NCBI GenBank assembly: GCA_009783415.1
Contig: WRHF01000001.1
Span: 1-49,213, forward strand
Length of the DNA: 49,213 bases
DNA from: Clostridiales bacterium
Lineage (GTDB): Bacteria; Bacillota; Dehalobacteriia; UBA4068
Direction: 5' to 3'
The notes under the pieces are model-generated. The model saw only the letters and a list, made by a program, of their open reading frames with translations, made no database searches and was not told where the DNA came from. The translations under genes were made by a program, and so were the position numbers. Positions within the stretch are counted from its first letter, which is position 1; the number at the start of each line of letters is the position of its first letter. Below are positions 21,579-46,645 of the stretch, one piece after another.

Positions 21579-21579
21579 A

Positions 21580-31809: not shown

Positions 31810-31817
31810 TATTTACC

Positions 31818-31849: not shown

Positions 31850-32021
31850 AAAGGCAAAACCAAAATTTCTATGATTTTGAGTTTTACCTTCGTGCCTACC
31901 TTTGGCTTTGCCGAAGGTAAAGGCAAGGCAGGTCAGTATTCAGTATGCGGGTAACTTTTCGCTCCGCGAAAACTATTGAAGCAAACAACTTGTTTTTTGG
32001 GCGCTTCTTGCGCCAAAGCGG

Positions 32022-32156: not shown

Positions 32157-32170
32157 AAAATCACCTCCCG

Positions 32171-32205
32171 TTCTAACATCTATCCTCTAACTTCTATCCT
32201 CTAAT
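32171..32205. repeat. heptamer-arm element, pyrimidine-rich arm; candidate right arm of the 30324 pair
   Basis: TTCTAAC ATCTATC CTCTAAC TTCTATC CTCTAAT. The reverse complement ATTAGAGGATAGAAGTTAGAGGATAGATGTTAGAA matches the (GTTAGAA)n arm at 30324-30372. Confidence 0.7.
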
Positions 32206-32346
32206 ACCCAAAAACTCCGGTGAGGTGAAGGCGGCCAGCAAGACAATAATAAAATAAAGGCCCAGCAACATTTTATGCAAGGCAAATATAGAGATAGGAG
32301 CAACCGCCACCAGATTATCTTTAAGTTTTGCCGCAAAGGTATTCAT
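32194..32346 (-). CDS. hypothetical small membrane protein (50 aa)
   Basis: Own translation: GAGGT-6 nt-ATG, MNTFAAKLKDNLVAVAPISIFALHKMLLGLYFIIVLLAAFTSPEFLGIRG. The 3' end lies in a heptamer arm. It may be a further decarboxylase small subunit or may be spurious. Confidence 0.3.
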   Translation of the reverse strand: MNTFAAKLKDNLVAVAPISIFALHKMLLGLYFIIVLLAAFTSPEFLGIRG

Positions 32347-32351
32347 ATTCC

Positions 32352-32379
32352 GACCTCAGTCCTCTGGCCTCTGCCTTCT
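32352..32379. repeat. heptamer arm interrupted by the MITE
   Basis: CCTCAGT CCTCTGG CCTCTGC CTTCTGG. It continues after the MITE as CTGCCTTCTGGCTTCTTT (32561-32578). Confidence 0.6.
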
Positions 32380-32560
32380 GGGTGCATCACATTTTCTGGG
32401 GTTGACAAAGAACGCATTGCCCATTGTAGGGGCGGCCATTGGTCGTCCGCGGACGCGCAATGCGCGCCCCTACAGGCATATATCCATGATACATTAGAGC
32501 TGCACATCCCTTTGTCATGTCTATTATTACCATGTCAACCCCAAATTTTGTGATGCACCC
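32380..32560. mobile_element. MITE-like element (181 bp) with 28-bp terminal inverted repeats and 9-10 bp target duplication
   Basis: The left terminal inverted repeat (TIR) GGGTGCATCACATTTTCTGGGGTTGACA (32380-32407) matches the reverse complement of the right TIR (32533-60), GGGTGCATCACAAAATTTGGGGTTGACA, at 24/28 positions. The element is flanked by the direct repeat CTGCCTTCT(G) at 32371-32380 and 32561-32570. It contains an internal stem GTAGGGGCG...CGCCCCTAC and no plausible coding capacity. Confidence 0.7.
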
Positions 32561-32748
32561 CTGCCTTCTGGCTTCTTTAAGGCATAGTTCTCTTTAGAGA
32601 AGCAACTCTATTTCCATACAAAACTTCTCCCCTATTATAATATTATATATCACATTGGTCTCTCTGTCAATACAGTAATACAGGTGTTTTGCCGGCAGCC
32701 CATTTTTTTCCAAAACATAGACGAAATTTTCTATACTTTCAGAAATAA

Positions 32749-32777
32749 TTGACCAATTCACCTTAATATGTTATGCT
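32749..32777 (+). promoter_or_regulatory. candidate hppA promoter
   Basis: TTGACC (32749-32754), 17 nt, TATGCT (32772-32777), about 35 nt upstream of the start codon. Confidence 0.5.
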
Positions 32778-32811
32778 ACATACATTGATTGCAAATGAGG
32801 AGGTAATATTA

Positions 32812-34860
32812 TTGAACTTGTATATTCTGGTTCCTATTATCGGCTGCCTGGCCCTTGTTTTTGCCTACTTACTAACTGTACGGATCAATAAGGTCAAACC
32901 GGGTAATTCCTTAATGGAAGAAATTGCTAATGCTATCAATGACGGGGCGATGGCTTTTTTGCGCCGCCAATATAAAACATTGATCATTTTTGTTTTGTGT
33001 TTGATGGCTGTTATTTGTGTGGCCGGGATCCTAACAAACGGCGAGGACAGTATGCTGCCCGCTACCGCCATATCCTTTGCCGCAGGCGCTTTTTGCTCCA
33101 TCCTGGCCGGTAATATCGGGATGCGGGTCGCGACCAGAGCGAATGTACGCACAGCAACCGCTGCCTGGCAAAACGGCTTGAACAAGGCCCTTGGTATCGC
33201 TTTTTCCGGCGGCGCGGTCATGGGTATGAGCGTTGTCGGCCTGGGTCTTTTGGGTTTGGGTATTATCGTTTTGATTTTCGATAATCCTGCTATTATCAAC
33301 GGCTTTGCTTTGGGGGCTTCTTCCGTAGCGCTTTTTGGCAGAGTGGGCGGCGGCATCTATACCAAAGCCGCCGATGTCGGTGCGGATCTGGTTGGCAAAG
33401 TGGAAGCCGGCATCCCCGAGGATGACCCGCGCAATCCTGCGGTCATTGCTGATAATGTCGGCGATAATGTCGGTGATGTGGCGGGTATGGGTTCCGATCT
33501 TTTTGAATCATATGTCGGCTCGATCATTGCCGCTATGGCTTTGGGCGCGGCTATTGGCATAGGCGCTAAGGGAGAAGGCATTATTGCCCCTCTGTTGATA
33601 GCGGCGGGCGGTATTATCGCCTCAATCATCGGCAGCTTCTTTGTCAGCGCCAAAGAGGGAGGTAATCCGCAAAAATCCTTGAATAACGGAACTTTGGTTA
33701 CCAGCATCCTTGCTGTTATATTTACTTTTATCGTAACCAAGCTGGTATTGCCGGCGACATTTACTACCGGGAATCTGTTAGGTTCAACAAAAACCTTTTC
33801 CTCCACGGGTGTATTCTTAGCCACTGTTGCCGGCCTTGCGGTTGGCTTTGCTATCGGTAAAATCACGGAATACTATACTTCCGCCGATTATAAACCTGTA
33901 AAGAGAATCGCTGCTTCCTGTGAAACGGGTGTGGCTACCAATATTATCAACGGGATCGCAACCGGCATGGGCTCCACCGCTATCCCCATCATCCTGATAG
34001 CTTCGGGGATTTTTGCTTCCTACTATTTTGCGGGTCTTTACGGTATCGCGATGGCTGCGGTGGGGATGCTCTCCACTACGGGCATGGTGGTTGCAGTGGA
34101 TGCCTATGGTCCTATTTCCGACAATGCCGGCGGTATAGCCGAGATGTCCCATCTGCCCAAAGAAGTGCGCAAAATTACGGATTCGCTGGATGCTGTGGGC
34201 AATACCACTGCCGCAATCGGCAAAGGTTTTGCCATCGGCTCCGCCGCCCTGACGGCATTGGCTCTTTTTAGCGCCTACACCAAGGCAGTGGGAATAGAAA
34301 TCATCAATATCCTCGACCCCAAGGTGGTCATAGGTCTCTTTGTCGGCGGCATGCTGCCCTTCCTTTTTTCTTCCATGACTATGCAATCCGTTGGCAAGGC
34401 GGCAGGTTTTATGATCGAAGAAGTGCGCCGCCAGTTCCGGGAGATCCCAGGGCTGATGAAGGGAGAAGCAAAGCCCGACTATGCCAAGTGCGTGGATATT
34501 AGCGCCAAGGCGGCCTTAAAGGAAATGGTTATCCCAAGCTTGATGGCAGTGTTAGTGCCGATATTCGTGGGCCTTTGTCCGGGGCTGGGCAAAGAATGCC
34601 TGGGCGGCTTGCTGGCAGGGACCTTGGTCACGGGCTTTTTGCTGGCAATATTTATGGCCAATTCCGGCGGCGCCTGGGACAATGCCAAGAAGTACATTGA
34701 AGACGGAAGCCACGGCGGCAAAGGCTCGGAGGCTCATGCCGCCGCGGTCAACGGCGATACAGTCGGCGATCCTTTTAAAGACACTTCCGGTCCTTCGTTA
34801 AATATTCTAATCAAACTGATGACAATCATCTCCCTGGTTTTTGCCCCATTATTTATGTAG
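32812..34860 (+). CDS. hppA: membrane-bound pyrophosphatase, K+-dependent type
   Basis: ORF 32773-34860. TTG 32812 is preferred (GAGGAGG 8 nt upstream). Contains [18 protein letters not shown] (Ala, not Lys, at the K+-dependence position) and DNVGDNVGD. Confidence 0.93.
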
Positions 34861-34962
34861 CGGCCGCACCGCAAGGAATTTGGGCGTAGAACATTTTTGA
34901 GAATAACGTAAAAAATTGTCGCATGATACAAATATGATGCTTCCTTGATGGGAATTTGATGC

Positions 34963-35005
34963 AACCTGCCAGTATAATATATATTATACTGGCAGGTTTT
35001 GGTTT
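34963..35005 (+). terminator. intrinsic terminator after hppA
   Basis: Perfect 36-nt palindrome AACCTGCCAGTATAATAT/ATATTATACTGGCAGGTT followed by TTGGTTT. Confidence 0.7.
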
Positions 35006-35253
35006 ATATAGAGGTATTCTAGAAAAAGAGATTCGGAGGAGATATCGAGCTGATGACCAATAGAGGTTACCATGATATCCCCATCCTCGAAACACCCCCC
35101 CGCCCCAATGAACACATCGTCTCTGTCCGCTGGGCCACCCCGGAGAATATTCCCAATTGGGAAGAAACCCTGACGCCCTATTTCAACAGATAAGTGTAGT
35201 GAGGAGCCCGTTGTCAACAGGTTAAGGAAATTAATAATTTGAGAGGGATCTAT

Positions 35254-36657
35254 ATGGTTTTTTCCAGTCTGGTGTTCCTGTATCTATTTTTGCCCGTATG
35301 TCTCGTCTTGTATTTCGTTATGCCGACTTTAAAGGCGAAAAATGTCGTCTTGTGCTTTTTATCGCTTTTGTTCTACGCTTGGGGCGAGCCGCTCTGGGTG
35401 GTTGCGATGATTTTTTCCGCGCTGACCGACTATACCTGCTCCCGGATCATCGGCAAGCATCGGGGTACACGGACGGCCAAACTGGCAATGGCAGCCTCCG
35501 TGATCCTTAATCTGGGTCTTCTTTTCACCTTTAAGTATTCCGATTTCTTTCTCGGCACAGTGGGGGCGCTGACCACTGTCCAGGTGCCCGTCGTAGGACT
35601 GAGGCTGCCCATCGGTATATCTTTCTATACCTTCCAGACAATGTCATACACATTGGATGTATACCGTGACGAGACGCCGGTGCAGCACAACTTCCTGGAT
35701 CTTCTCCTGTTTGTCTCCTTGTTTCCCCAGCTCATCGCCGGGCCCATTGTACGTTATCGCGAAGTCGCCGAACAGATCGGAAAGAGAAACAGCACCTGGG
35801 AGGGTGTCTCATCGGGCATGACCCGGTTTTTCTGCGGGCTGGGCAAGAAAGTGCTGCTGGCTAACTTCGCCGGAGAGACAGCGAGAAATATTTTGAACTC
35901 CGACTTCGGCATTCTATCCGCACCGGCGGCCTGGCTGGGCATCCTCTGCTTCGCGTTCCAGATCTATTTTGACTTTTCGGGATACTCGGACATGGCCATC
36001 GGCCTTGGGCGTGTGTTTGGGTTTAGATACGGCGAGAACTTCGACCACCCCTACATAGCGCGCTCCATCACATCGTTCTGGAGGCGGTGGCACATTTCCC
36101 TGGGCAGGTTTTTCCGGGATTACGTCTACATCCCTTTGGGCGGCAACCGGCGGTTTCAGCTGCGCAACATTATGATCGTGTGGTTTTTGACCGGTCTGTG
36201 GCACGGCGCCAGCTGGAACTTTATGATCTGGGGACTCTATTTCGGGGTGCTGCTGGTTCTGGAAAAGCACCTGCTCAAAAGATTTTTACATAAGCTCAAA
36301 TGGGGCGGCATTTTATACAGTTTCTTCTTTGTTTTACTGGGCTGGGTGCTGTTCTATTTCACCGACCTCACCCGTGCGTTAGCGTTCTGCAAAATTCTCT
36401 TTGCCGGCGGCGCGCCGCTTGACAAGGCCACGGGCATTTTACTGATCAACAACCTGCCCTTGCTGCTGTTGTGCGCCGTAGCCTCCACACCTGTGCCCAA
36501 GCTGCTGAAACAGCGCCTGATAAATTGGCCCGCGGCGGCCCGTTGGCGGCCGGCCGGCACAGCTACAGCTGTGGCTTTCAATATGGCCATCTTGTTTTTA
36601 TGCACATCGGCGCTGGTGGGAGCCAGTTACAATCCGTTTTTGTATTTTAGATTTTAA
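35254..36657 (+). CDS. MBOAT family O-acyltransferase (AlgI/DltB/PatA-like)
   Basis: ORF 35239-36657, ATG 35254. Multi-pass membrane protein; FWRRWHISLGRFFRDYVYIPLGGNR contains the MBOAT catalytic His region. Confidence 0.88.
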   Translation: MVFSSLVFLYLFLPVCLVLYFVMPTLKAKNVVLCFLSLLFYAWGEPLWVVAMIFSALTDYTCSRIIGKHRGTRTAKLAMAASVILNLGLLFTFKYSDFFLGTVGALTTVQVPVVGLRLPIGISFYTFQTMSYTLDVYRDETPVQHNFLDLLLFVSLFPQLIAGPIVRYREVAEQIGKRNSTWEGVSSGMTRFFCGLGKKVLLANFAGETARNILNSDFGILSAPAAWLGILCFAFQIYFDFSGYSDMAIGLGRVFGFRYGENFDHPYIARSITSFWRRWHISLGRFFRDYVYIPLGGNRRFQLRNIMIVWFLTGLWHGASWNFMIWGLYFGVLLVLEKHLLKRFLHKLKWGGILYSFFFVLLGWVLFYFTDLTRALAFCKILFAGGAPLDKATGILLINNLPLLLLCAVASTPVPKLLKQRLINWPAAARWRPAGTATAVAFNMAILFLCTSALVGASYNPFLYFRF

Positions 36658-36669
36658 GAGGTGTCCGCC

Positions 36670-38094
36670 ATGAAAAAATATTCCCTTTTTATCATCCTGA
36701 TCCCGGTCCTCGTACTGGGTGTCTGGAGCCTTCTGAACCCCAACGGGGAGGTGTCGGCATGGGAAAAGCGAGCACTGAAAAGTACGCCCGCCTTTACTTT
36801 GGAAAACCTGTTTTCCGGACGCTATACCCAGGAACTGGAAGAGTACTACGCAGACACATTTCCGGTAAGAGACACATTTATCAACGTAAACACCGCAATG
36901 GGCGGGTTCTATTATTTCAACGGAGGCGCCGAGGCGGCCCTGGTCATTGGGCACAAGGGGCTCGACCAGGACGTGGAAGCGCCGGCTGTATCGTTGCGCA
37001 AGGAAATACCCTTAGGGCAAAACAGCGGCCCAAGCGCGGCCGCGCCGCAGGCGGATATCCCGGATGCGGCGGCAGAAACCTCGGCTGGGATGGCGGAGCT
37101 AGAGATACCGCATGAAGAACCGCCACCGGTGGAACTTGAGCCACCTGATGAATCGGAGGCCGAAAATGCCGGCAACATCATCATCGTCGGGACGCGAGCC
37201 ATGGAGATCCCCTATGCAGTGGAGAAGAACATGAGACGCTACGCTGCCGCGATCAGCCGTGCGGCAAAGCTTGCAGAGGATGCACAGGTCTATTCCCTGG
37301 TTGTACCCAACGCAGGAGAGTTTTATTCGCCGGTTTCCCTGCACACCGGGGCAACCTCTCAGAAGAAAATGATCAGCGATATGTACGCCATGCTGTCGCC
37401 GGATGTGAAGGGCATTGACGCCTATGACAAACTGTGCCGTCACTTGGACGAATACCTGTACTTCCGAACCGATCATCATTGGTCGCAGCTCGGCGCCTAT
37501 TACGCCTATACTGCCTTTTGTCAAAGCGCGGGGATTGCTTACCCGGAACTTAAAGCCTATGAAAGCGGTTCCTTTGCAGGTTTTGTCGGCAGCATGTACG
37601 GCTTTACCAAGAACTATCCTCAGAGTAAAACACTTAAAGACAACCCGGATACGTTGATCTATTATCTGCCTTTGGCTGAATGCAAAGGGAGGCAGTATGC
37701 CGGCGCCCGGCTGGAGGACGAGGGATTTCCGGTCAAAGCAGTGGCCACATCGGTTTCGGAGAGTTACTCGGACAAATACATTTGTTATATAGGCGGCGAC
37801 GCCTCTCTTACCCATTTTGAAACAGACATCGGAAACGGGCGCTCCATCATAGTCATCAAAGATTCTTTCGGCAATGCGTTCGTCCCGTTTCTTACCTCAA
37901 ATTACCAGGATATCTATGTCGTAGACCCTCGGTATGTCAATGGGAAGAAGAAACCGGATTTCAATCTGAGCCAATTTGTCGCAGAGCAACAGATAAATGA
38001 CGTGCTCTTTCTCAATTACCCCTTCCCCATGAACTCAAATGCATGGTGTGATATGCTGGAGCGGCTGATCGGCGTGAACAAGACGGAAAACTGA
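36670..38094 (+). CDS. DHHW family protein (AlgX/AlgJ/PatB-like partner of MBOAT)
   Basis: ORF 36661-38094, ATG 36670 (AAGAGGTG upstream). N-terminal TM segment, the name-giving FRTDHHWSQLGAYYAY motif, and an acidic/Pro-rich linker. Confidence 0.85.
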   Translation: MKKYSLFIILIPVLVLGVWSLLNPNGEVSAWEKRALKSTPAFTLENLFSGRYTQELEEYYADTFPVRDTFINVNTAMGGFYYFNGGAEAALVIGHKGLDQDVEAPAVSLRKEIPLGQNSGPSAAAPQADIPDAAAETSAGMAELEIPHEEPPPVELEPPDESEAENAGNIIIVGTRAMEIPYAVEKNMRRYAAAISRAAKLAEDAQVYSLVVPNAGEFYSPVSLHTGATSQKKMISDMYAMLSPDVKGIDAYDKLCRHLDEYLYFRTDHHWSQLGAYYAYTAFCQSAGIAYPELKAYESGSFAGFVGSMYGFTKNYPQSKTLKDNPDTLIYYLPLAECKGRQYAGARLEDEGFPVKAVATSVSESYSDKYICYIGGDASLTHFETDIGNGRSIIVIKDSFGNAFVPFLTSNYQDIYVVDPRYVNGKKKPDFNLSQFVAEQQINDVLFLNYPFPMNSNAWCDMLERLIGVNKTEN

Positions 38095-38194
38095 TGCTGT
38101 TGTTTTGCATACCAGCAAGGATTTCTTTTAGGCTCTAACTCCCGAAATTCTGCGTAAAATGGCAAAATTTTCGTGCCGCCGTATTCCTGCTCCT

Positions 38195-38220
38195 ACTCAA
38201 AACTCAACACTCAAAACTCC
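38195..38220. repeat. heptamer-arm element, orphan arm
   Basis: ACTCAAA ACTCAAC ACTCAAA ACTCC, the complement type of the GAGTTTT/GAGTGTT arms. It lies downstream of the DHHW gene. Confidence 0.7.
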
Positions 38221-38238
38221 GGCTTGTCCGGGTTAGAA

Positions 38239-38280
38239 GGTGACCATAAACCCCCCGTTTATGGTCACCCCCTTTATTTG
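38239..38280 (+). terminator. intrinsic terminator after the MBOAT-DHHW pair
   Basis: GGTGACCATAAAC-ccccc-GTTTATGGTCACC (13 bp) followed by CCCCTTTATTTG. Confidence 0.5.
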
Positions 38281-38370
38281 CCGTGGATTTACTGCGGATA
38301 GATTTTTTACACCCCACTTGACAATTGCGGCTGTTTAGGCGGGATTATCTGATCCTGATAAAATTCGGAT

Positions 38371-38399
38371 TTGCACAATGCTGCCGAATATGTTATTAT
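38371..38399 (+). promoter_or_regulatory. candidate ymdB promoter
   Basis: TTGCAC (38371-38376), 17 nt, TATTAT (38394-38399). Confidence 0.45.
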
Positions 38400-38436
38400 A
38401 GGCAAGTGACAAAAAATCTATTGGAGAGCAAAGTTG

Positions 38437-39216
38437 ATGAGGGTTCTTTTCATTGGGGATATTATCGGCGCCCCCGGCCGCAAAATTATTGAAAGAAGTT
38501 TGCGCCGGCTTCAGGATGAGCTGAAGATTGATTTTACTATTGCAAACGGGGAAAACAGTGCCGGCGGGGCCGGGATGAATAAGAAAGTTTTTACGAATTT
38601 GGTGGAAATGGGCGTGGATGCCCTGACTATGGGCAACCACATCTGGGATAATAAAGATATTTTTAATTTTATAGACGACCCCCGGATCGTCCGCCCGGCT
38701 AATCTCAACTCCCGCCTGCCCGGCGCCCCCTTTCGGCTCTATGAAGCGGCCGGGCAAAAAATCGCCCTGACCAACATAATCGGCCGCACCTATATGCCCC
38801 CGGCCAACTGTCCCTTTACGGCTATGGATCAAATCTATTGCCAAACTAAGGATCTGACCTCCATCCTGATCGTGGATTTTCATGCCGAAGCTACTTCGGA
38901 AAAAGCAGCCATGGCCTGGTATTTGGATGGAAGGGCCAGCGCTGTGATCGGCACCCATACCCATGTCCAAAGCAATGACGCCCGTTTTTTGAACCGGGGC
39001 ACAGTTTTTATCAACGACGTAGGCATGACCGGCCCCAGAGATTCCATTCTGGGCGTAGGCAAAGAAGAGGTAATAGAACGCTTCCTGACCCAAGTACCGG
39101 TACGCTTCTCCCCCGCCACGGGAGATATCCAATTCAACGGAATTGTTTTAAACTTCGATGCGGCAGGAAAGGTAACGGATTTTGAGGTGCTGAACTTTTA
39201 TGAACCGGAACACTGA
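38437..39216 (+). CDS. ymdB: YmdB-family metallophosphoesterase (2',3'-cyclic-nucleotide phosphodiesterase)
   Basis: 259 aa from ATG 38437, containing MRVLFIGDIIGAPGRKII...ANGENSAGGAGM...GNHIWD. Confidence 0.9.
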   Translation: MRVLFIGDIIGAPGRKIIERSLRRLQDELKIDFTIANGENSAGGAGMNKKVFTNLVEMGVDALTMGNHIWDNKDIFNFIDDPRIVRPANLNSRLPGAPFRLYEAAGQKIALTNIIGRTYMPPANCPFTAMDQIYCQTKDLTSILIVDFHAEATSEKAAMAWYLDGRASAVIGTHTHVQSNDARFLNRGTVFINDVGMTGPRDSILGVGKEEVIERFLTQVPVRFSPATGDIQFNGIVLNFDAAGKVTDFEVLNFYEPEH

Positions 39217-39235
39217 GCCGCGCCTTTGGCGCGGC

Positions 39236-39445
39236 AGTGTGGAGTGTGGAGTGTGGAGTGTGGAGTTATTGAAGTTTTGCTCCGCAAAACAATTTATTAT
39301 AAGAAAACTATTCAAGAGTGTTTTTACTGATACTATAACTTCAATAATACACATATATGTTTTCGCATATCGAAAACCAACATAACACTTCACTCTCAAC
39401 TCTCAACTCTCCACACTCCACTCTCCACTCTCCACACTCCACTCT
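39236..39445. repeat. heptamer-arm hairpin element, full copy with long core
   Basis: 5' arm (GTGTGGA)x4 at 39237-39264. The 120-nt core has hairpins GTTTTGC-tcc-GCAAAAC at 39274-39290 and GTTTTCG-catat-CGAAAAC at 39359-39377. The 3' arm has 8 units CTTCACT CTCAACT CTCAACT CTCCACA CTCCACT CTCCACT CTCCACA CTCCACT at 39388-39443. It lies between the plus-strand genes ymdB and the dipeptidase. Confidence 0.9.
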
Positions 39446-39468
39446 AACAATCAAGGAGGTCTAGAAAC

Positions 39469-40434
39469 ATGAGAGTAGACGCCCACAACGACACTGCTCT
39501 ACGCCTTTGGGATCTACCTACCATACGTACTGCTCCTGTCGATTATAGGCTTCAGGGACAGTTTTCTCCTCAGGCGGATTTGCTGCGTTGGCAGGAAAAT
39601 TTTGACATTGCTTTTTTTGCTGTCTATATCGACCAGGAAGCTTATGCCGGCCGCTATTTTGCCGCCAGTCAGGAACTGTTCCGCCGCCTGAAAAGGGATT
39701 TGGCCGCTAACAGCGATATTGTCCGGCTTGTCCTCCGGCGGGATGATGTGAGGAAGGATCCCCGCCTTGGGGTTTTGCTGGCAATTGAGGGAGCCGAATG
39801 CTTAGGCGATAACCCGGAACTGCTCCGGGCTTATTTTCATATTGGCGTACGCAGTCTGGGCTTTACCCATAACCCCGCTAATGCCCTGGCCGGAGGCTGC
39901 CAAGCAAAAGGCGGCTTCACCGAGGCAGGCCGCCGCACCGCCCGGCTCGCCAATGAAATCGGGATAATTCTGGATGGCGCTCACCTTAATGAAGAGAGTT
40001 TTTGGGATTTATTGGAAATAAGCAGCCAACCGGTAATCATCTCTCATACTGCCGCCGCCGCTTTGCGCCCTCATTACCGCAACCTGAGCAACGAACAATT
40101 GCGGGCTGTAGCGGCAAACGGCGGAGTGGTTGGAGTGACTTTTGCCAATCTTTTCCTGGCCGATGATGCAGATCTGTCCGACTACCTGCGCCACCTGGAG
40201 CATGTGGCAAAAGTAGCAGGCATAGATCATGTAGGGATCGGCTCCGATTTCGACGGCTGCGATCTGCCTCGGGGGATCAATTCCGTTTCCGATATGCACA
40301 AAGTACTGACCGGCTTAAAAGAAATTGGCTTTAGTGATCTAGAAATCGCCAAAGTCTATGGAGAAAATTTCTGTCGGATTATGAGAAAGATACTGCCGTG
40401 TGATACGGCAGAATTGAAAAAGGAAAAAGGATAA
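39469..40434 (+). CDS. membrane dipeptidase (peptidase M19)
   Basis: 321-aa ORF with AAGGAGG upstream; contains MRVDAHNDTALRL...ISHTAAAALRPHYRNLSNEQL...GIGSDFDG. The last 6 codons lie in a heptamer arm. Confidence 0.88.
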   Translation: MRVDAHNDTALRLWDLPTIRTAPVDYRLQGQFSPQADLLRWQENFDIAFFAVYIDQEAYAGRYFAASQELFRRLKRDLAANSDIVRLVLRRDDVRKDPRLGVLLAIEGAECLGDNPELLRAYFHIGVRSLGFTHNPANALAGGCQAKGGFTEAGRRTARLANEIGIILDGAHLNEESFWDLLEISSQPVIISHTAAAALRPHYRNLSNEQLRAVAANGGVVGVTFANLFLADDADLSDYLRHLEHVAKVAGIDHVGIGSDFDGCDLPRGINSVSDMHKVLTGLKEIGFSDLEIAKVYGENFCRIMRKILPCDTAELKKEKG

Positions 40435-40930
40435 AGGAAAATTGGTAACAGATAATTAATAGTTGGTAATTGATAATTTTAGTGGGATTGGTGGGATTGA
40501 TTTGAGTAATGTTGTTCGGGAGAAAAGTTTTGGATTTGCTGTTCGGATTGTTCGATTATATAAGTTTTTGTGTGCTGAAAAGAAAGAATATGTTCTTTCA
40601 AAGCAGCTTTTGAAGAGTGGAACCAGCATTGGCGCAAATATTGAAGAATCCTTACAAGCCCAAGGGAAAAGGGATTTTCTGAATAAAACCAACATTGCCC
40701 TTAAAGAAGCAACCGAAACCCTATACTGGCTCCGCCTACTCCACGCAACCGGATATATAGATGAAAAACAGACCCAAAGCATATCCTCAGATTGCAAAGA
40801 AATAACTGCCATTCTAGTATCAATCGTAAAAACAACAAAAGCAAATCTAGAACGATCAAGCAAAAAAGAAACCAAACAAATCCCCAAAGAATAGTGATTT
40901 TCCTTTTTCCTTTTTCCTTTTTCCTTTTTC
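40417..40930. repeat. heptamer-arm element carrying a gene in its loop
   Basis: 5' arm AAAAAGG AAAAAGG ATAAAGG AAAATTGG at 40417-40445. 3' arm (CCTTTTT)x4 at 40902-40929 within 40898-40930. The arms are near-perfect complements, and the only content between them is the four-helix-bundle ORF. Confidence 0.85.
40502..40894 (+). CDS. four-helix-bundle protein (23S rRNA intervening-sequence protein family, Avd-like)
   Basis: ORF 40463-40894. TTG 40502 is preferred (GGTGGG 6 nt upstream), but the start is uncertain. EKSFGFAVRIVRLYKFLCAEKKEYVLSKQLLKSGTSIGANIEESLQAQGKRDFLNKTNIALKEATETLYWLRLL matches the TIGR02436/PF05635-type pattern from memory. Confidence 0.85.
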   Translation: MSNVVREKSFGFAVRIVRLYKFLCAEKKEYVLSKQLLKSGTSIGANIEESLQAQGKRDFLNKTNIALKEATETLYWLRLLHATGYIDEKQTQSISSDCKEITAILVSIVKTTKANLERSSKKETKQIPKE

Positions 40931-40958
40931 AATTTATAAATCACCGGAGGTGATTTAC

Positions 40959-41774
40959 TTGCGTGGTTTTGATTTACATGTCCACAGTACCGCTTCGGAC
41001 GGGCTATGGACGGTTGGAAAAATTATTAAGACGGCTAAGGGAATGGGCCTGGAAGGTCTGGCTATTACCGATCATGATACTACGGCAGGCTTGGATGAGG
41101 CTTTGCGGTTGGCAGAAGAGTTTAATTTTCCTTTGATTCCAGGTGTTGAGCTTAGTGCGGAATGGCAGGATTTGGATATTCATATCCTGGGCTATTGGCT
41201 GGATCATCGCCAGCCGCGGCTTTTGGCGCGTTTGCTTCAGCTTCAAGAAGCCCGCCGGGAGCGCTGCCGTCAAATCGGCGCCAGGCTGGCATCTCTTGGT
41301 ATGCCTATTGATGTGGATGGCTTGCTGGCTGCCGCAGGAGATTCTATAGGGCGCCCCCATATCGCTTATGCCATGGTCAATAAAAGCTATTGTCTCAGCG
41401 TCACCGATGCTTTCCGCCGCCATATCGGCCGGGGAATGCCGGCCTATGTGCCTAGGGAAAAATTTTCTCCTTTTGAAGCAGTGGAAATGGTACTGGCTGC
41501 CGGAGGAGTAGCCGTGCTGGCCCATCCCGGATTGACCTTCCCGGACGACCTGCTGTATGACTTAATCAAGCTGGGCCTGGGCGGGATCGAGATTTATCAT
41601 CCGGAACATACCCCAGGGCAGGAACGCAAATACCTGAAAATTGCCGGAGAATACGGCCTGGCCTACACCGGCGGCTCGGACTTCCACGGCCGGGGCGACC
41701 GCTCCCTGGGCCAAAGGGTCACCTACCAGTATCAGCTGGAAGTTTTAAAACAAAAAATAATTACCAGCCACTAA
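40959..41774 (+). CDS. PHP domain phosphoesterase (TrpH/YciV-like)
   Basis: ORF 40950-41774. TTG 40959 is preferred (GGAGGTG 6 nt upstream), giving MRGFDLHVHSTASDGLW...AITDHDT...GVELS...GGSDFHG. Confidence 0.85.
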   Translation: MRGFDLHVHSTASDGLWTVGKIIKTAKGMGLEGLAITDHDTTAGLDEALRLAEEFNFPLIPGVELSAEWQDLDIHILGYWLDHRQPRLLARLLQLQEARRERCRQIGARLASLGMPIDVDGLLAAAGDSIGRPHIAYAMVNKSYCLSVTDAFRRHIGRGMPAYVPREKFSPFEAVEMVLAAGGVAVLAHPGLTFPDDLLYDLIKLGLGGIEIYHPEHTPGQERKYLKIAGEYGLAYTGGSDFHGRGDRSLGQRVTYQYQLEVLKQKIITSH

Positions 41775-41856
41775 TTTCTTTTTCCCGTGCTTAAAAAAGC
41801 TCCCTCCGGCATATACTAACCCAGATGGGAAGTATTTCAAATCAGGGGAGTTGCCA

Positions 41857-42174
41857 ATGCCTTCAGAATTGCATTTCAACCGCGAGGAAACCCAGCGTTA
41901 CGAAGATAAAATCCGCCAGCTCCAGGACAATATTTTAAATCTACGGATCAGCCGCCGTATTTTGATGACTTTGCTGGAACAGGTACAAACCGAAAAAGCC
42001 CGCGAGGAAGAACGCCTGCGCAAAGAGGCTCAGCGCCTGCAAAAATCCAACAGCCGCTATGCCGGCAATCTCCTCAAGAAAAACCAGCGCATCCGGGAAC
42101 TGGAGCAAGCCCTGTCGGCTCATTCCGAGTGTAATTCTGAATTGAGCGCATCGCCGTCCACTTCTATCAACTGA
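41857..42174 (+). CDS. hypothetical coiled-coil protein
   Basis: 105 aa from ATG 41857. The heptad-rich, charged sequence (EDKIRQLQDNILNLR...EKAREEERLRKEAQRLQK) is followed by a strong terminator. I recognise no family. Confidence 0.55.
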   Translation: MPSELHFNREETQRYEDKIRQLQDNILNLRISRRILMTLLEQVQTEKAREEERLRKEAQRLQKSNSRYAGNLLKKNQRIRELEQALSAHSECNSELSASPSTSIN

Positions 42175-42201
42175 AAAGCTAATAATTGAATATTTGCCAA
42201 G

Positions 42202-42244
42202 ACAGCCTGGATATAAATGCATGTTTATTTCCAGGCTGTTTTTT
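42202..42244 (+). terminator. intrinsic terminator after the coiled-coil ORF
   Basis: ACAGCCTGGA-18 nt-TCCAGGCTGT followed by TTTTT. Confidence 0.65.
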
Positions 42245-42390
42245 AGACTATGCCTACTATGTGACATGAGAGTTTCTCGCTAGTACAAATTTCCACTTTT
42301 CATAATTTTTCGACTGCCTTCGGCGGCCAATTATTATACGGCCAGAAAAAACAAGATTGGTAAATACGGAGATTAAGGGATTGAAAGATT

Positions 42391-43917
42391 TTAAGATTTT
42401 AGATTGAGCCAAAAAGCGGGACGAACACCACCACCAGAGAAACTGACACTATCACCAATATCATGGACGCCGCCGTTGGGGCTGACATGGGCAGCATTGT
42501 CAGGACTGCAGCCAGGGGAACGCAGCCACCACCACACCGCTTTCCCTTCCAGACGGGCAACACGGGCTTTGTCATACGGAAAGTATTGTTTGACTTCATT
42601 AATGCTAAGCAGAAAAAGATTGTCCTTTGTGTCAATGCTGCCCCTTGTTCTCCACATTTCATTGTCGGGGTTTTTGTTATCCCAAGTCAAAACCCGGCTG
42701 CGTTCTTTATCATCGAAGATCTGCTCCAAAAGCTGGGGAAGCAATTCTTTCTTGAGGGAGCACTTCGCCCATGTCACACTCTCTAGTTTTTTATTGTACG
42801 GAGCCGTCATCAGGCAGTCCTTCGTTATCAGCAACGCCCTGTCCGGTTGCACATCCAGGATATGCCATTCTAAAAGTTTGTTCTTCCATCGGCCCATGGT
42901 ATATATCTCATTTCTAACGAGCGGTTTTTCATCAGACCGTGTTACTTCGGCGGACTTTTTCGCCTGGGTGGGAGAGGATTTTCGGTAGGCGTGCGGAAAC
43001 TCCGGCGCAATAGATTCAACCTCCTTGACCTGGCCTGTGATATCAGCATATATGTACTCCAGGATGTCCTCTACATAGTGATATTCGCCATTAGGATACC
43101 AGATGCAGTGCATTTGCAGCCGATCAGCTATGAATGCCCTGCGTTCCTCAAAAGCTTCTTCCCCGGCTTCACCATCCATCGGCAAAATAGCGTAGTGTCC
43201 GCCTGTACTCAATCCAGTCAGTAAATCCACTGTGCGATCCTCCTTGAGACCGCAGCCGATAAACAGCAGATTGTTTCCGCTAAGAATACTATGAAGCCGT
43301 TTGATATGCTCCGAGTCTTCTTGATATAAATCGTTGTATGAATCTTTGGTCATCACCACTTCATCCGGCGCAGATACGCAGCCATGAATTTTAATCAGGT
43401 AGTGCGAACTGCCCCTTTGCACGCGTAAAGCTTGCCAAGGGGTCAGGTGACGGAGAACCAGTTTTTCCTCAAAGGAGTGCTGCTCCATCAGGAAGGCCCG
43501 TTCAAGTACTTTATCAAAGTTCGTGGTAATAACGAGGGAATTTTTAAATAGCCTGGGAAGATATCGTACAGACATTTTTTTCAGGGACTCATCCCTGATA
43601 AAAGAATCTTTAAACATTGCGACCAATCGATCATAAAAGATCGTGTTACATAGCACATCGTGGATTTTCTGGGCGGCAGCCTCGAAATCACCGCAATTAA
43701 TAAGACTTTCCACTTCATCGGCTTCGCTCTCTCGCCCGTTGAAATGCCCTTTCATCATTTTCCGCAAAGCCACACCCCAAGAGCTGTAAATATCAATAGA
43801 CAATCCCGCGCCTACGAAAGGGATTATGCGATTGCGTCTGATAAGAGGGATAAGTTGATCTTCAAGTATACTGCGGTTTTCAAAACAGTCGAATTTTGGA
43901 TCATCCAAATCAAGCAT
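42391..43917 (-). CDS. SIR2-like (SIR2_2) NADase domain fused to a DUF6273-like C-terminal domain; candidate defence protein
   Basis: ORF 42391-43977. ATG 43917 is preferred (GGAGG 6 nt upstream). Motifs IPFVGAGLS, ITTNFDKVLE, IKIHGC and LLFIGCGLKEDRTVDLL. C-terminal motifs WWWLRSPG...GGGVRPAFWLNL. Confidence 0.75.
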   Translation of the reverse strand: MLDLDDPKFDCFENRSILEDQLIPLIRRNRIIPFVGAGLSIDIYSSWGVALRKMMKGHFNGRESEADEVESLINCGDFEAAAQKIHDVLCNTIFYDRLVAMFKDSFIRDESLKKMSVRYLPRLFKNSLVITTNFDKVLERAFLMEQHSFEEKLVLRHLTPWQALRVQRGSSHYLIKIHGCVSAPDEVVMTKDSYNDLYQEDSEHIKRLHSILSGNNLLFIGCGLKEDRTVDLLTGLSTGGHYAILPMDGEAGEEAFEERRAFIADRLQMHCIWYPNGEYHYVEDILEYIYADITGQVKEVESIAPEFPHAYRKSSPTQAKKSAEVTRSDEKPLVRNEIYTMGRWKNKLLEWHILDVQPDRALLITKDCLMTAPYNKKLESVTWAKCSLKKELLPQLLEQIFDDKERSRVLTWDNKNPDNEMWRTRGSIDTKDNLFLLSINEVKQYFPYDKARVARLEGKAVWWWLRSPGCSPDNAAHVSPNGGVHDIGDSVSFSGGGVRPAFWLNLKS

Positions 43918-43975
43918 GTTCATCCTCCAAACAAGCAGATTTGTTCTAGCAACAGCACTTGCCAATGACGTAAAC

Positions 43976-44005
43976 ATTGTACCACAGGGTGAGCTTCGCC
44001 CGCAA
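43976..44005 (-). promoter_or_regulatory. candidate promoter of the SIR2-like gene (extended -10)
   Basis: TTGCGG (44005-44000), 18 nt, TGgTACAAT (-10 at 43981-43976). Confidence 0.45.
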
Positions 44006-44006
44006 C

Positions 44007-44070
44007 CTAGTGGCTAGTAACTAGTGGCTATAACGGATGACTTTCGCCCCGCGAAAGGATTGAATTAAAA
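44007..44070. repeat. heptamer-arm element, half copy (arm + core)
   Basis: Arm CTAGTGG CTAGTAA CTAGTGG CTATAAC at 44007-44034. Core hairpin CTTTCGC-ccc-GCGAAAG at 44041-44057. Box GATTGAATTAAAA at 44058-44070, 7 nt from the comEB stop. Confidence 0.8.
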
Positions 44071-44077
44071 GCATATA

Positions 44078-44563
44078 CTAACTGAATTCTTGTTTATTAT
44101 TGACACTTCTTGCTCCCAATTCACTAAAACGGATCAGCTCCATTCCTGCTTCCTGAGCCAGGCGGCAGGCTAGTTCGTCCGGGTAGTCGCTGTCGAAAAT
44201 TACCTGTTTGATTCCGCTGGTCACCATGGCTTTGACGCAGGTGGTGCAGGGTTGGGCGGTTACATAAACTGTAGCGCCTAAAAGGGCCACCCCGTAGCGG
44301 GCGGCAAAATTGCAGACATTGGCTTCGGCATGCTGGGCCCGGCAGATCTCCTGGCGCTGGCCGGAAGGAATGCCCAGCTTGTTGCGGAGGCAACCGGCCT
44401 CGTCACAGTGGAGGGCTCCGGGTAAAGCCCCGTTATAACCGGTGCCGAGGATCCTGTTTTCCGGGCTGACAGCCACAGCCCCAACCTGCCGCCGCAGACA
44501 GGTGGAACGGGTGGCTACCTGACGGGCAATGTTCATAAAATAATCAGGCCATGATTGACGCAT
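44078..44563 (-). CDS. comEB: dCMP deaminase (ComEB family)
   Basis: 161-aa ORF with zinc motifs HAEANV and PCTTCVKAM. Confidence 0.9.
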   Translation of the reverse strand: MRQSWPDYFMNIARQVATRSTCLRRQVGAVAVSPENRILGTGYNGALPGALHCDEAGCLRNKLGIPSGQRQEICRAQHAEANVCNFAARYGVALLGATVYVTAQPCTTCVKAMVTSGIKQVIFDSDYPDELACRLAQEAGMELIRFSELGARSVNNKQEFS

Positions 44564-44578
44564 AATTAGCTAACCTCC

Positions 44579-45682
44579 CTATATTTTTTTCAAGATGATT
44601 TCAGTAATGTACTGTGCCGCCCGACCGTCCCCATAGGGATTAACAGCCTGGGCCATGCTTTGATAAACTTTATCGTCATCCAGCAGCAGGCCAACACCTT
44701 CACGTACCCGCCGGTAATCTGTTCCTATCAGTCGGGCTGTACCTGCGGCTATGGCCTCCGGCCGTTCTGTTACTTCACGTAATACCAAAACCGGTTTGCC
44801 CAAGGCCGGGGCTTCTTCCTGAAGGCCGCCGCTATCGGTCAGTACCAAATGGCAGCTTTTCATAACCTGACAAAAGGGCAGATAATCCAAAGGTTGGCAA
44901 AGATGGACTTGGGACAGGGTACTAAAAGCCTCTTGGGCAGCTTGCCGGACCAGGGGATTTTTGTGAACAGGGAAAATCACTTCCACATCGCTGTGTTCCC
45001 GCACCGTATCCGCCACAGCAGCAAATATCTCCTCCATAGGCCGGCCCCAATTCTCCCGGCGGTGGCAAGTCAGCAGAATAACCCGCTTGGCCCAATCCAG
45101 CCGATCCAGGCCCAGACCGGCCAAAGAGCATTCCTGTTCTACCGTTTGCAGCAGTGCATCGATCACTGTATTGCCTGTCAAGAAAATTTTCTCTGCCGGA
45201 ATATTTTCCGCCAGCAAATTATCCCGGGCGGCGGCGGTCGGGGCAAAATGAAAGTCAGCCAAAGATCCCACCAGGCGGCGGTTTATTTCCTCCGGAAAAG
45301 GAGCGTATTTATCGGCAGTGCGCAAGCCGGCCTCGACATGGCCGCAAGGAACCTGCTGATAGAAAGCAGCCAAAGCCCCGGAGAGGGTGGTAGTAGTATC
45401 ACCATGGACAAGCAACAGATCCGGCTTTTCCTCTGCTATGATTTGGCCCAAGCCGCGCAAAGCTAAGCTGGTAATATTTTCCAGAGTTTGCCCCGAATGC
45501 ATAATATTCAAGTCATAATCGGGAGTAATTTGGAAAAGCTGCAGCACCTGATCAAGCATCTCCCGGTGCTGGGCAGTGACAGCAACTTTGGACTCAATTT
45601 GAGGCTGCCGGGAGAGGCATCGTACCAGCGGCGCCATTTTGATAGCCTCAGGACGGGTGCCGAAGGCGGAGAGGACTTTCAT
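44579..45682 (-). CDS. wecB: UDP-N-acetylglucosamine 2-epimerase (non-hydrolysing)
   Basis: ORF 44579-45739. ATG 45682 gives MKVLSAFGTRPEAIKMAPLV...HVEAGLRT... Confidence 0.92.
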   Translation of the reverse strand: MKVLSAFGTRPEAIKMAPLVRCLSRQPQIESKVAVTAQHREMLDQVLQLFQITPDYDLNIMHSGQTLENITSLALRGLGQIIAEEKPDLLLVHGDTTTTLSGALAAFYQQVPCGHVEAGLRTADKYAPFPEEINRRLVGSLADFHFAPTAAARDNLLAENIPAEKIFLTGNTVIDALLQTVEQECSLAGLGLDRLDWAKRVILLTCHRRENWGRPMEEIFAAVADTVREHSDVEVIFPVHKNPLVRQAAQEAFSTLSQVHLCQPLDYLPFCQVMKSCHLVLTDSGGLQEEAPALGKPVLVLREVTERPEAIAAGTARLIGTDYRRVREGVGLLLDDDKVYQSMAQAVNPYGDGRAAQYITEIILKKI

Positions 45683-45765
45683 AGTATTTATTAGTTCCTT
45701 TCTTGGGTTGGAGTTTGTTTGCTGGGGATTAGAAAGCAAGTAACAAGTAACAGGGCTGTTTTGGA

Positions 45766-46218
45766 TTATTTGCCCTTTTTCAGCTCGATATCTTTAATGT
45801 GTTCTTCAAAATATTGCATTGTAGAATATTGACAAAGCAACTTATTCCTGTAAATATGTAGCGCTGTTTTCGCTGCTTTATATTCCGAAATGTGCTTGAT
45901 AAGTTTTTGCTTAATTATATATTCCTTACCTCGCAAAGAATCAAATTCATTCTGACGAATAAAAGGTTTCTTAGTATTATCAATATATTTCTCATCTGCA
46001 ATAACTACCGCCTTGGAAAAATCTAAGCCACACCTATTATTCTTGTCCGTCCATAATACATGTTCCTTATGATTAATGTCAGATCTTAAGGGAATAGCAA
46101 ACTGCACATCGTTTATTTTGGTGTAAACTAGCGCATAAGGGCGCATAGATTTTTGCTCTATTTCCGTGCATTCTTTATATTTGTCATAAAATAGCTCATT
46201 TAGAAACAGGAACTTCAT
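45766..46218 (-). CDS. type III toxin-antitoxin toxin, ToxN/AbiQ-like endoribonuclease
   Basis: ORF 45766-46233. ATG 46218 is preferred (GGAGG 8 nt upstream). MKFLFLNELFYDKY...RPYALVYTKINDVQFAIPLRSDINHKEH resembles the ToxN/AbiQ N-terminal pattern. It is preceded by a repeat array and hairpin. Very AT-rich. Confidence 0.65.
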   Translation of the reverse strand: MKFLFLNELFYDKYKECTEIEQKSMRPYALVYTKINDVQFAIPLRSDINHKEHVLWTDKNNRCGLDFSKAVVIADEKYIDNTKKPFIRQNEFDSLRGKEYIIKQKLIKHISEYKAAKTALHIYRNKLLCQYSTMQYFEEHIKDIELKKGK

Positions 46219-46239
46219 GCAATATGCCTCCATAAATGA

Positions 46240-46264
46240 CTATAGCCCTATAATAGGGCTATAG
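46240..46264 (-). terminator. perfect hairpin between repeat array and toxin (attenuator-like, as in toxIN loci)
   Basis: CTATAGCCCTA-tta-TAGGGCTATAG, an 11-bp stem followed by TCATTTAT. There is no clean U-tract, so it may only attenuate transcription. Confidence 0.45.
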
Positions 46265-46356
46265 TCTTCTCAGTGAACTTTTTTTTGTTTACCCTGCTCA
46301 CGTTCTATGAGCAGATCTTCTCAGTGAACTTTTTTTATACTCACGTTCTATGAGTA
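46265..46356 (-). ncRNA. candidate type III antitoxin RNA (ToxI/CptI-like), two tandem repeats
   Basis: Transcript sense: unit 1 (46356-46314) is TACTCATAGAACGTGAGTAT-A7-GTTCACTGAGAAGATC. Unit 2 (46313-46265) is TGCTCATAGAACGTGAGCAGGGTAAAC-A8-GTTCACTGAGAAGA. The internal 6-bp hairpin shows a compensatory change between units. The locus lies between a consensus promoter and the toxin gene. Confidence 0.6.
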
Positions 46357-46391
46357 TTTATAGAATAAGATGAATCTTACTCTTTGTTATT

Positions 46392-46420
46392 ATTATACGC
46401 AGCAAATCGAAATATGTCAA
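46392..46420 (-). promoter_or_regulatory. sigma-A type promoter of the repeat-array/toxin locus
   Basis: TTGACA (46420-46415), 17 nt, TATAAT (46397-46392): a perfect consensus. Confidence 0.7.
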
Positions 46421-46585
46421 GAATTCGAAGGAAAATTCCAGGACAATCGCAATGAAAATATTAGTCAATTGCAAGTAATAATATACTATAAATAGCATAG
46501 CCTGTCAAGTATTTTATCAGGGATAGCTGTGAAAACTATTCCCCCAAAAACCTGCAACCGCTGTGTGCTTTTAACTAAAATAATG

Positions 46586-46641
46586 GTTTCGCAAAGCGAA
46601 ACTTCATTACCTGTAACCTGTAACCTATTACTTATTACCTG
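46586..46641. repeat. heptamer-arm element, half copy (core + 3' arm)
   Basis: Core hairpin GTTTCGC-aaa-GCGAAAC at 46586-46602. Arm TTACCTG TAACCTG TAACCTA TTACTTA TTACCTG at 46607-46641, abutting the comM stop. It uses the same 7-mer type as 514-562. Confidence 0.8.
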
Positions 46642-46645
46642 CCTT

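Follow-up and report, generated by a model that had tools for sequence, protein, structure and literature searches.

A four-helix-bundle protein gene between inverted heptamer arrays in an mRNA spacer of a Clostridiales bacterium, and its likeness to 23S rRNA intervening sequences

The dipeptidase–PHP spacer and its cassette

In a 49,213-nucleotide stretch of DNA from a Clostridiales bacterium (GenBank assembly GCA_009783415.1, contig WRHF01000001.1, positions 1 to 49,213; hereafter the window), a small open reading frame (ORF) encoding a four-helix-bundle (4HB) protein lies between genes for an M19 membrane dipeptidase and a PHP-domain phosphoesterase, on the same (+) strand as both, and is bracketed by two complementary arrays of tandem heptamers (Table 1). 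We refer to the ORF, the two arrays (the arms) and the leader between them as the cassette. An inverted-repeat search delimited the arms as 40412–40441 (AATTGAAAAAGGAAAAAGGATAAAGGAAAA) and 40905–40934, each of 30 nt and 97% complementary to one another, which bears out the description of them in an initial annotation of this DNA as near-perfect complements; the spacing given there, about 450 bp, was of the right scale, and the measured value is 463 nt. Tandem Repeats Finder (TRF) resolved the arms as (GAAAAAG)x3.7 at 40416–40441 and (TTTTCCT)x4.7, with 100% matches, at 40898–40930. When the RNA of positions 40395–40950 was folded in silico, the arms formed the closing stem in both the minimum-free-energy and the centroid structure, in keeping with the proposed topology of a long stem with an ORF in its loop. 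The same proposal made the ORF the sole content of that loop; this did not hold, as a leader of 60 nt separates the left arm from the ORF and contains a second, degenerate heptamer array. After this array comes GGTGGG, which we read as a Shine-Dalgarno-like motif, 7 nt 5' of the TTG at 40502. The GAAAAAG arms are found at no other place in the window, and the cassette is without the TTTTGC-NNN-GCAAAA core hairpins that are typical of the gene-less heptamer elements described below.

The ORF is intact, with a TTG start and a TAG stop ending at 40894, and encodes 130 amino acids. We take TTG 40502 as the likely start in preference to TTG 40463, which would give 143 amino acids, because 130 amino acids agrees with how long homologues are, and the Pfam match begins accordingly. 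Its assignment to the family named after 23S rRNA intervening sequences (IVSs) was upheld by matches to PF05635 (98.3 bits against a cut-off of 33.8; model positions 4–105 of 106) and TIGR02436 (111.3 bits against a cut-off of 24; model positions 1–109 of 109). An AlphaFold2 (AF2) monomer model has a pLDDT of 93.2 and helices at residues 4–25, 31–51, 56–82 and 88–125; with this model, Foldseek retrieved 2RLD (TM 0.96 at 63% identity) and 2GSC (TM 0.85), and a phmmer search of the PDB retrieved 2RLD with E = 1.5e-40. The former is the crystallised Bacteroides thetaiotaomicron protein BT_0352, 63% identical to the ORF protein. Both solved relatives have five chains each, and a Xanthomonas relative has been reported as a pentamer (PMC4990558). 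Searches with PADLOC and PHROGs gave no match, and among the transposase, defence and phage families covered by these and by hidden Markov model searches the protein matches none, its only matches being to uncharacterised 4HB families.

The left arm overlaps the end of the dipeptidase gene. As had been noticed at the outset, it supplies the last six to seven codons (ELKKEKG) of the protein. The protein ends ...CDTAELKKEKG, and the TAA stop codon also lies within the arm. For the PHP gene the most likely start is TTG 40959, judging from a homologue (P0241) that is 99% identical and also 271 amino acids long. Intrinsic terminator prediction found none on the + strand between the dipeptidase and PHP genes, and promoter-like matches that might give the ORF a promoter of its own were no higher than the shuffled expectation; read-through transcription is therefore the simplest assumption for this spacer. 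About 0.6 kb 3' of the PHP gene, on the – strand (42391–43977), lies a gene whose 528-amino-acid product combines SIR2_2 and DUF6273 domains and looks defence-like.

Table 1. Features of the cassette, its host spacer and the paired gene-less elements of the window
Feature	Position	Strand	Basis or remark
M19 membrane dipeptidase gene	39469–40434	+	PF01244, 273 bits
Small hairpin CTGCCGT-GTGAT-ACGGCAG	40393–40411	+	Adjoins the left arm on its 5' side
5' (left) arm, AATT(GAAAAAG)n with one variant repeat GGATAAA	40412–40441	+	TRF, inverted-repeat search
Leader, second degenerate heptamer array, unpaired (TTGGTAA CAGATAA TTAATAG TTGGTAA TTGATAA)	40443–40480	+	Sequence reading
4HB protein gene	40502–40894	+	PF05635, TIGR02436, 2RLD, AF2
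3' (right) arm, (TTTTCCT)x4.7 then CAATT	40898–40934	+	Starts 3 nt past the ORF stop codon
Hairpin AAATCACC-GGA-GGTGATTT	40938–40956	+	PHP ribosome-binding site in and next to the loop
PHP-domain phosphoesterase gene, 271 aa	40959–41774	+	PF02811
Block wholly different from sibling strain L035	40415–40958	+	Arms and 4HB ORF here; gene-less element of about 165 nt in L035
Neighbouring gene-less element	39233–39445		(AGTGTGG)n, two small hairpins, (CACTCTC)n
Eleven paired gene-less elements within 4459–22206	4459–4572, 7921–8047, 9173–9266, 9823–10061, 12053–12130, 14093–14218, 14528–14628, 17842–17902, 19197–19359, 21441–21577, 22084–22206		

Arms at homologous loci and in sibling strains

To establish whether homologues of the ORF are bracketed by complementary 7-mer arms, a check suggested by the initial annotation, we assembled 35 loci whose ORFs are 34–77% identical and which represent chromosomes and plasmids of at least eight phyla. 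Besides the window, the set comprises eight loci from species-representative genomes (55–59% identity; Campylobacteraceae, Nitrospirota, Bacteroidales and several Clostridia), 15 from JGI metagenomes, contigs encoding the closest database homologues, and nine of 31 annotated plasmid records, which were mostly from Nostoc, the nine including Treponema, Bernardetia, Chlorohelix, Planktothrix and Gloeocapsa. Overall, the hosts are Campylobacteraceae, Nitrospirota, Bacteroidota, Spirochaetota, Chloroflexota, Cyanobacteriota and several Clostridia. A scan of genome contigs gave a best ORF match of 59% identity and no genome with a close copy. As a control we used 628 random 400-nt placements in related loci, for which the inverted-repeat score had a 99th percentile of 24.7 and a maximum of 30. 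The window ORF has a best flanking score of 55; the flanking inverted repeat exceeds the control 99th percentile at 34 of the 35 loci and the control maximum at 30, and the sole failing locus is a contig cut inside the arm. Invariably the repeat consists of paired tandem-heptamer arrays of about 36 nt (about five units) per side, located some 0–130 nt from the start and stop codons. Bracketing by arms is thus a property of the gene family and not of the window genome. In full-text literature searches we found heptamer arms described in no paper as a general feature of PF05635 genes.

The heptamer itself differs between loci (Table 2). Copies on plasmids of Nostoc punctiforme and Treponema saccharophilum (plasmid pTS1 in the latter) carry arms, and the arrays that flank cyanobacterial plasmid copies are ACCAGTG / CACTGGT x13 in Euhalothece, AATTCAA x4 in Nostoc and AATCCCC/AATCGTA in Planktothrix. 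At amino-acid identities of at least about 70%, the arm family tracks the ORF clade, as seen in four clades (window/L038, L010/L040/L041, L003/L004/L006/L007 and L005/L015/L017/L019).

Table 2. Arm heptamers at individual loci (L numbers)
Locus	Heptamer	Remark
Window, L038	GAAARAG	
L010, L040, L041	GAGAGKK	
L003, L004, L006, L007	AAAATKC	
L005, L015, L017, L019	AATKGAN	
L008	GGGAATT	x5
L029	AATTCAA	x4, perfect
L027	GATTAGT	x>15
L028	ACCAGTG	CACTGGT x13 on the other side

At 16 of 17 metagenome and genome loci and at eight of nine plasmid loci, the ORF points in the same direction as the gene downstream of it; usually the upstream gene shares this orientation as well. Its operon contexts, with gene names taken partly from annotation or Pfam matches and partly read from flanking translations, include hsdS-ORF-hsdR, histidine kinase-ORF-response regulator, csx2-ORF-cas1, helicase-ORF-methylase and epimerase-ORF-rmlA. 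Moreover, certain gene pairs have the cassette between them in more than one organism, namely hsdS/hsdR, histidine kinase/response regulator, csx2/cas1, and a helicase or DUF1156 gene paired with a methylase or HEPN gene (L005, L015 and L019; L010, L040 and L041; L032; L033 and L034). A preference in insertion, vertical retention or function could underlie such recurrence.

The closest homologue of the window ORF, at 73% identity, is that of L038, which comes from the same metagenome as the window, itself a metagenomic Clostridia contig of ENA sample ERZ27257320, lies between genes that we read as xerC-like and hslV-like, and has the arms TTGAAAGAGGAAAGAGGAAAAAGGAAAA. Closer still in the surrounding DNA is the sibling strain L035, a JGI contig from a Clostridiales metagenome-assembled genome. 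This contig aligns by MAFFT to positions 30393–42100 of the window at about 99% identity, with scattered single-nucleotide differences and the same genes, and is without the ORF; the differences include a single cluster of 440 at 40393–40959. In L035 the dipeptidase–PHP spacer is occupied instead by a gene-less element made up of (GGAGAAT)x4, the hairpin TTTTTGC-TCC-GCAAAAA, a linker, the hairpin AAAAACCC-AGA-GGGTTTTT, (ATTCTCA)x5 and a ribosome-binding-site hairpin of its own. A third sample, L025, has the same GGAGAAT arm as L035. Because the arm differs, the L035 dipeptidase also ends differently (..AEWRMENG.., 334 amino acids). The small hairpin that adjoins the left arm is present in L035 with two changes (TTGCCGT...ATGGCAG), both of which, read by eye, would turn pairs into G-U pairs. 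At the other end, the hairpin carrying the PHP ribosome-binding site keeps its GGA loop, and its stem differs from that of the window (CTTACC-GGA-GGTAAG at 9989–10003 of L035), as does the PHP start codon, TTG in the window and ATG in L035; therefore, the exchanged block includes the translational hairpin. A comparison of empty sites through dipeptidase homologues yielded one close match, on a 1-kb contig, and sites were recovered through the PHP gene instead. In the distant relatives L036 and L037, whose PHP protein is 56% identical, the dipeptidase and PHP genes are 17 nt apart, with no element between them. Taken together, the tracking of arm family with ORF clade, the swap in L035 and the empty spacer of L036 and L037 show that the cassette was gained together with its own arms as one block, at a spacer that is itself an acquired site occupied by elements.

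These comparisons bear on the idea that a free-standing 4HB gene simply landed in the loop of a resident heptamer hairpin, with the arms belonging to the host element. Heptamer hairpins do fill many spacers of this genome, and one without a gene stands in this very spacer in the sibling strain, as that idea would have it. However, the GAAAAAG arms are unlike the GGAGAAT of the sibling and unlike every other array in the window, and they match instead the family of L038, at a different locus. Furthermore, random placements never reach the scores seen around the ORF, and in most of the related loci a stringent scan found arrays only at the ORF, five loci having arrays elsewhere as well. We consider such a coincidence contradicted by these data and highly improbable.

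A separate difference between the window and L035 is an insert of 190 nt at 32371–32560, absent from L035, that resembles a miniature inverted-repeat transposable element (MITE), with terminal inverted repeats of 28 nt (GGGTGCATCACATTTTCTGGGGTTGACA) and an inner palindrome at 32425–32474. It is unrelated to the heptamer elements.

Gene-less elements, the heptamer core and the level at which the arms act

The window contains 35 tandem-heptamer arrays, which we grouped into 12 clearly paired gene-less elements and about 10 solitary arrays; the count of roughly 27 gene-less elements given initially was too high. A paired element consists of a heptamer arm, one or two 17-nt TTTTGC-NNN-GCAAAA hairpins, an AT-rich linker separating them, and a complementary arm, and its heptamer varies from element to element. 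The gene-less elements are placed inside operons, after one gene's stop codon and ahead of the ribosome-binding site of the gene that follows. Over positions 1–31800 they lie between consecutive large minus-strand ORFs, which we read, from ORF size and order and from the S10 leader, as a ribosomal-protein/RNA-polymerase cluster (rpoB, rpoC, fusA, tuf). Spacers in such operons are normally minimal. Rfam at gathering thresholds placed no family on any heptamer element of the window; elsewhere it reported the S10-Clostridia ribosomal-protein leader at 17749–17823 (–; 40.4 bits) and a 6A RNA at 46268–46318 (–; 65.7 bits).

One heptamer exactly separates the sibling strains in the (AGTGTGG)n arm at 39235, and in its partner arm three substitutions at 39412–39422 exchange one heptamer variant for another. 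The arms change through slippage of units, as has been described for the IVS of Coxiella. Many 5' arms have a short hairpin rich in GC, such as CCGCGCCTTCGGCGCGG, directly on their 5' side (14070–14092, 17210–17233, 17832–17841, 22060–22083, 39210–39232); it could be the stem of a terminator whose tail the T-rich heptamers provide, or a preferred target, or else belong to the element. Two candidate rules for the arms were rejected. A G-rich 5' arm is universal among the paired elements of the window and occurs at 24 of 33 ORF loci only, and was replaced by the phase-aligned core described next; a role for 5' arms as universal stop-codon traps (12 of 19 G-type arrays stop all three frames) follows trivially from their C-poor composition.

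When 43 arrays from the window and loci L002–L041 were phased, they shared a core, N-N-A-R-T-K-N, in which A is present in 97%, R in 100%, T in 83% and K in 97%; its information content is 5.68 bits, compared with 4.34 ± 0.13 bits for a null in which positions were permuted within each heptamer. We refer to this core as ARTK. Gene-less hairpins of the same heptamer family as the ORF cassette occur within a few kb of it in L005 and L008. L003 carries, 1.5 kb from its ORF cassette, a second element (6858–7296) that shares the AAAATGC arms and the subterminal sequences of that cassette. When its interior of 370 nt was checked for a cargo gene, no convincing ORF emerged; the element may be a decayed cassette or carry non-coding cargo. 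Small hairpins are kept between arm and ORF on both sides in L011, L003 and L007, a layout that is the two-hairpin plan with the ORF replacing the AT-rich linker. A search by tblastn for ORF remnants in the gene-less cores of the window returned only the ORF itself at E <= 10.

Placed side by side with the strain comparison, these observations refine two claims of the initial annotation. It had taken the cassette for one copy of the local element that happens to carry a gene: the heptamer-arm design is indeed shared, but the cassette has GAAARAG arms, common to it and L038 and to no gene-less element of the window, and no core hairpins, and so does not belong to the local family. Nor is the window ORF copy the parent of that family. 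It had also suggested that the short elements are non-autonomous relatives of a gene-carrying one; kinship is supported by the common design, the ARTK core, the alternation of the two forms at one site and the elements of L003, L005 and L008, and either form may be the ancestral one.

We favour, as a fairly probable account, that this is an IVS-type cassette, in which a small, promoter-poor gene for a 4HB protein of the S23p family, with an Avd-like fold, and the inverted arrays of about four to five tandem heptamers on either side would make up one heritable, horizontally moving unit in an mRNA spacer, with the arms forming an RNase III-type stem. The cassette, being aligned with the host operon, would be transcribed by read-through from the dipeptidase gene. 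In the transcript, the arms would pair as a stem of about 30 bp and bring the host flanks together. That stem would be a duplex of the type cut by RNase III, as judged from the homologous heptamer stem of the Coxiella 23S IVS, and the insert would then be excised from the host RNA or be structurally insulated within it. Excision or insulation at the RNA level would explain how cassettes and their gene-less relatives are tolerated in rRNA, ribosomal-protein operons and defence operons.

Several observations weigh against this account. The whole-fold z-score for 40395–40950 is modest (–2.5), and cutting by RNase III at this locus is proposed by analogy. A test of arm mismatches counted 44 transversions, compared with five G-U-compatible changes in the sense and nine in the antisense direction, and thus gave no RNA signature; what keeps the arms paired may be the shuffling of whole heptamers, not selection acting on RNA pairs. 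The ARTK core is a constraint on sequence beyond pairing, is left unexplained by a model in which any stem would do, and implies a sequence-specific reader. In addition, no transposase, integrase or target-site duplication was found.

Some of the same evidence is what would be expected if the cassette were a mobile element read as DNA. In that case, the arrays would be terminal or subterminal repeats, double-stranded or as single-strand hairpins, recognised by a recombination or replication function, which could be the 4HB protein as an accessory factor or a host enzyme, and the RNA stem would be incidental. The replacement of the cassette between near-identical strains, the joint inheritance of arms and ORF, the ARTK core, the lack of G-U bias among mismatches, the slippage of heptamer copy number between strains, and the gene-less relative with the same arms and subterminal sequences in L003 all fit. 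Set against these are a protein that is a helical bundle of only 120–130 amino acids matching uncharacterised families alone, junctions without a target-site duplication, and the strong co-orientation with host genes, which, along with the RNA processing of the Coxiella homologue, points to the transcript. We regard a DNA-level element as possible, though not as the probable answer.

A further possibility is that the cassette is a domesticated regulator of its operon, the protein, pentameric in its crystallised relatives, binding the ARUK repeats of the nascent 5' arm, competing with the stem, and so tuning the processing or translation of its own mRNA and of the downstream host gene. The trp RNA-binding attenuation protein (TRAP), which binds triplet repeats in RNA, would be the model. 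The conservation of ARTK at 7-nt spacing, the near agreement between about five heptamers per side and the five chains of 2RLD, 2GSC and the Xanthomonas pentamer (PMC4990558), the arms that abut the ORF start codon in several loci (L010, L016, L040 and L041), and the recurrence of the gene between histidine kinase and response regulator, hsdS and hsdR, and csx2 and cas1 are all compatible with such a role. However, such binding is conjectural, and the lengths of 5' and 3' arrays show no significant asymmetry (p = 0.22), for which reason the idea of extra protein-binding sites on the 5' side was dropped; the Coxiella protein is apparently not made in vivo (PMC4990558); the operons that harbour the cassette are unrelated, as would be expected of a selfish insert; and regulation does not easily account for the hundreds of gene-less copies found in housekeeping operons. 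We think such a regulatory role unlikely.

Returning to the IVS-type cassette, we also entertain a more far-reaching and doubtful extension, in which a pan-bacterial class of mobile elements, devoid of any canonical transposase, would have the 4HB protein as its dedicated factor acting in trans. A pentameric ring might recognise some five ARTK heptamers of a single arm, in the form of RNA or single-stranded DNA, and this contact might drive the spread, maintenance or processing both of cassettes and of the far commoner gene-less hairpins. If so, the 23S IVSs, the heptamer repeats of cyanobacteria and the 4HB genes in restriction-modification, CRISPR and two-component operons would be three faces of one system.

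Comparison with known systems

A working analogue for the possible role of the arms is provided by the early mRNA of phage T7, in which intercistronic stem-loops are cut by RNase III to give separately stable mRNAs. Unlike the cassette, those sites are short, gene-less, and neither repetitive nor mobile.

The initial annotation related the protein structurally to Avd, the accessory protein of diversity-generating retroelements (DGRs). A resemblance of fold was indeed detected, Avd being a 4HB protein of similar size, but it is weak: Foldseek matched 4DWL_D with a TM of 0.84 (target-normalised) or 0.71 (query-normalised), an rmsd of 2.4, 13–17% identity and E = 0.12, and also the DGR ribonucleoprotein entries 8UB7 and 8UBE, and a phmmer search of PDB sequences with the ORF protein did not find Avd. 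Among the genes called over 32419–48100 there is no RVT domain, the neighbours being the M19 dipeptidase and PHP genes (no search for template and variable repeats was made). With no reverse transcriptase at the locus, DGR membership is not supported.

The gene-less elements recall the Correia/NEMIS elements of Neisseria and the enterobacterial repetitive intergenic consensus (ERIC), which are hairpin-forming MITEs that are co-transcribed with operons and cut by RNase III. Like them, the elements of the window are short imperfect palindromes inside operons that are present, absent or variable between strains. In contrast to the one conserved terminal inverted repeat of Correia/NEMIS and ERIC, the arms here consist of copy-specific heptamers, there is no transposase family, and the gene-carrying relative encodes a helical-bundle protein rather than a transposase. 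With respect to the features of a MITE, the cassette has terminal inverted repeats and is polymorphic by replacement in comparison with L035 and L025 and by absence in L036 and L037; at its junctions no target-site duplication was seen, and the sole gene carried is that of the 4HB protein.

A second parallel is with the short tandemly repeated repetitive (STRR) sequences of cyanobacteria, tandem heptamers in intergenic DNA that often form inverted pairs and have been known since about 1990 with their function unexplained. Elhai reportedly described, in 2008, small dispersed repeats embedded in heptamer hairpins. STRR-type heptamers flank the cyanobacterial plasmid copies of the ORF. STRR sequences are cyanobacterial, whereas the arrays described here are found also in Clostridia, Bacteroidota, Spirochaetota, Nitrospirota, Chloroflexota and Campylobacteraceae. 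Our literature searches found no paper tying STRR repeats or heptamer arrays to PF05635 genes.

The closest likeness is to the IVSs of 23S rRNA in Leptospira, Coxiella burnetii and Brucella, which share with the cassette a PF05635 ORF in the loop of a stem of terminal inverted repeats, sense to the host transcript. The IVS of Coxiella has an S23p ORF in the loop of a 28-bp stem, for which cleavage by RNase III was shown in vitro and mapped by rapid amplification of cDNA ends; GACAGAT heptamers stand there as three tandem copies, a number that varies between strains, and the 5' cut falls at the first copy (PMC4990558). Tandem heptamers in the stem and, as at 39235, a strain-variable copy number are thus shared with the Coxiella IVS, and the GACAGAT units resemble the CAGATGT/GACAGAA units of the window element at 9823–9859. 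That work mentions the heptamers as a peculiarity of the locus, with no rule for the whole family drawn from them. The link to IVSs put forward at the start is strengthened by the tandem heptamers of the Coxiella stem (PMC4990558). IVSs proper lie in helix 25, 45 or 9 of 23S rRNA, and the cassette lies instead in an mRNA spacer between protein genes; Rfam found no rRNA in the window, so that the 23S location that defines an IVS is lacking. The cassette is IVS-like, not an IVS proper.

Proteins of PF05635/TIGR02436 are very common (at least 7,995 matches) and unexplained, and their genes have repeatedly been reported as oddities within 23S rRNA, within cas loci and within defence operons; a 4HB gene between cas genes was noted earlier and treated as a possible functional link (PMC3936711, PMC10910872). 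Because the gene is nearly always armed, because a core motif is common to the arrays, which accompany the gene, and because gene-less and gene-carrying forms alternate at one site, our findings suggest that rRNA IVSs, scattered 4HB genes and heptamer-repeat hairpins are one type of element. The association of 4HB genes with CRISPR or restriction-modification loci may, by the same token, reflect the insertion sites of cassettes and not a shared function.

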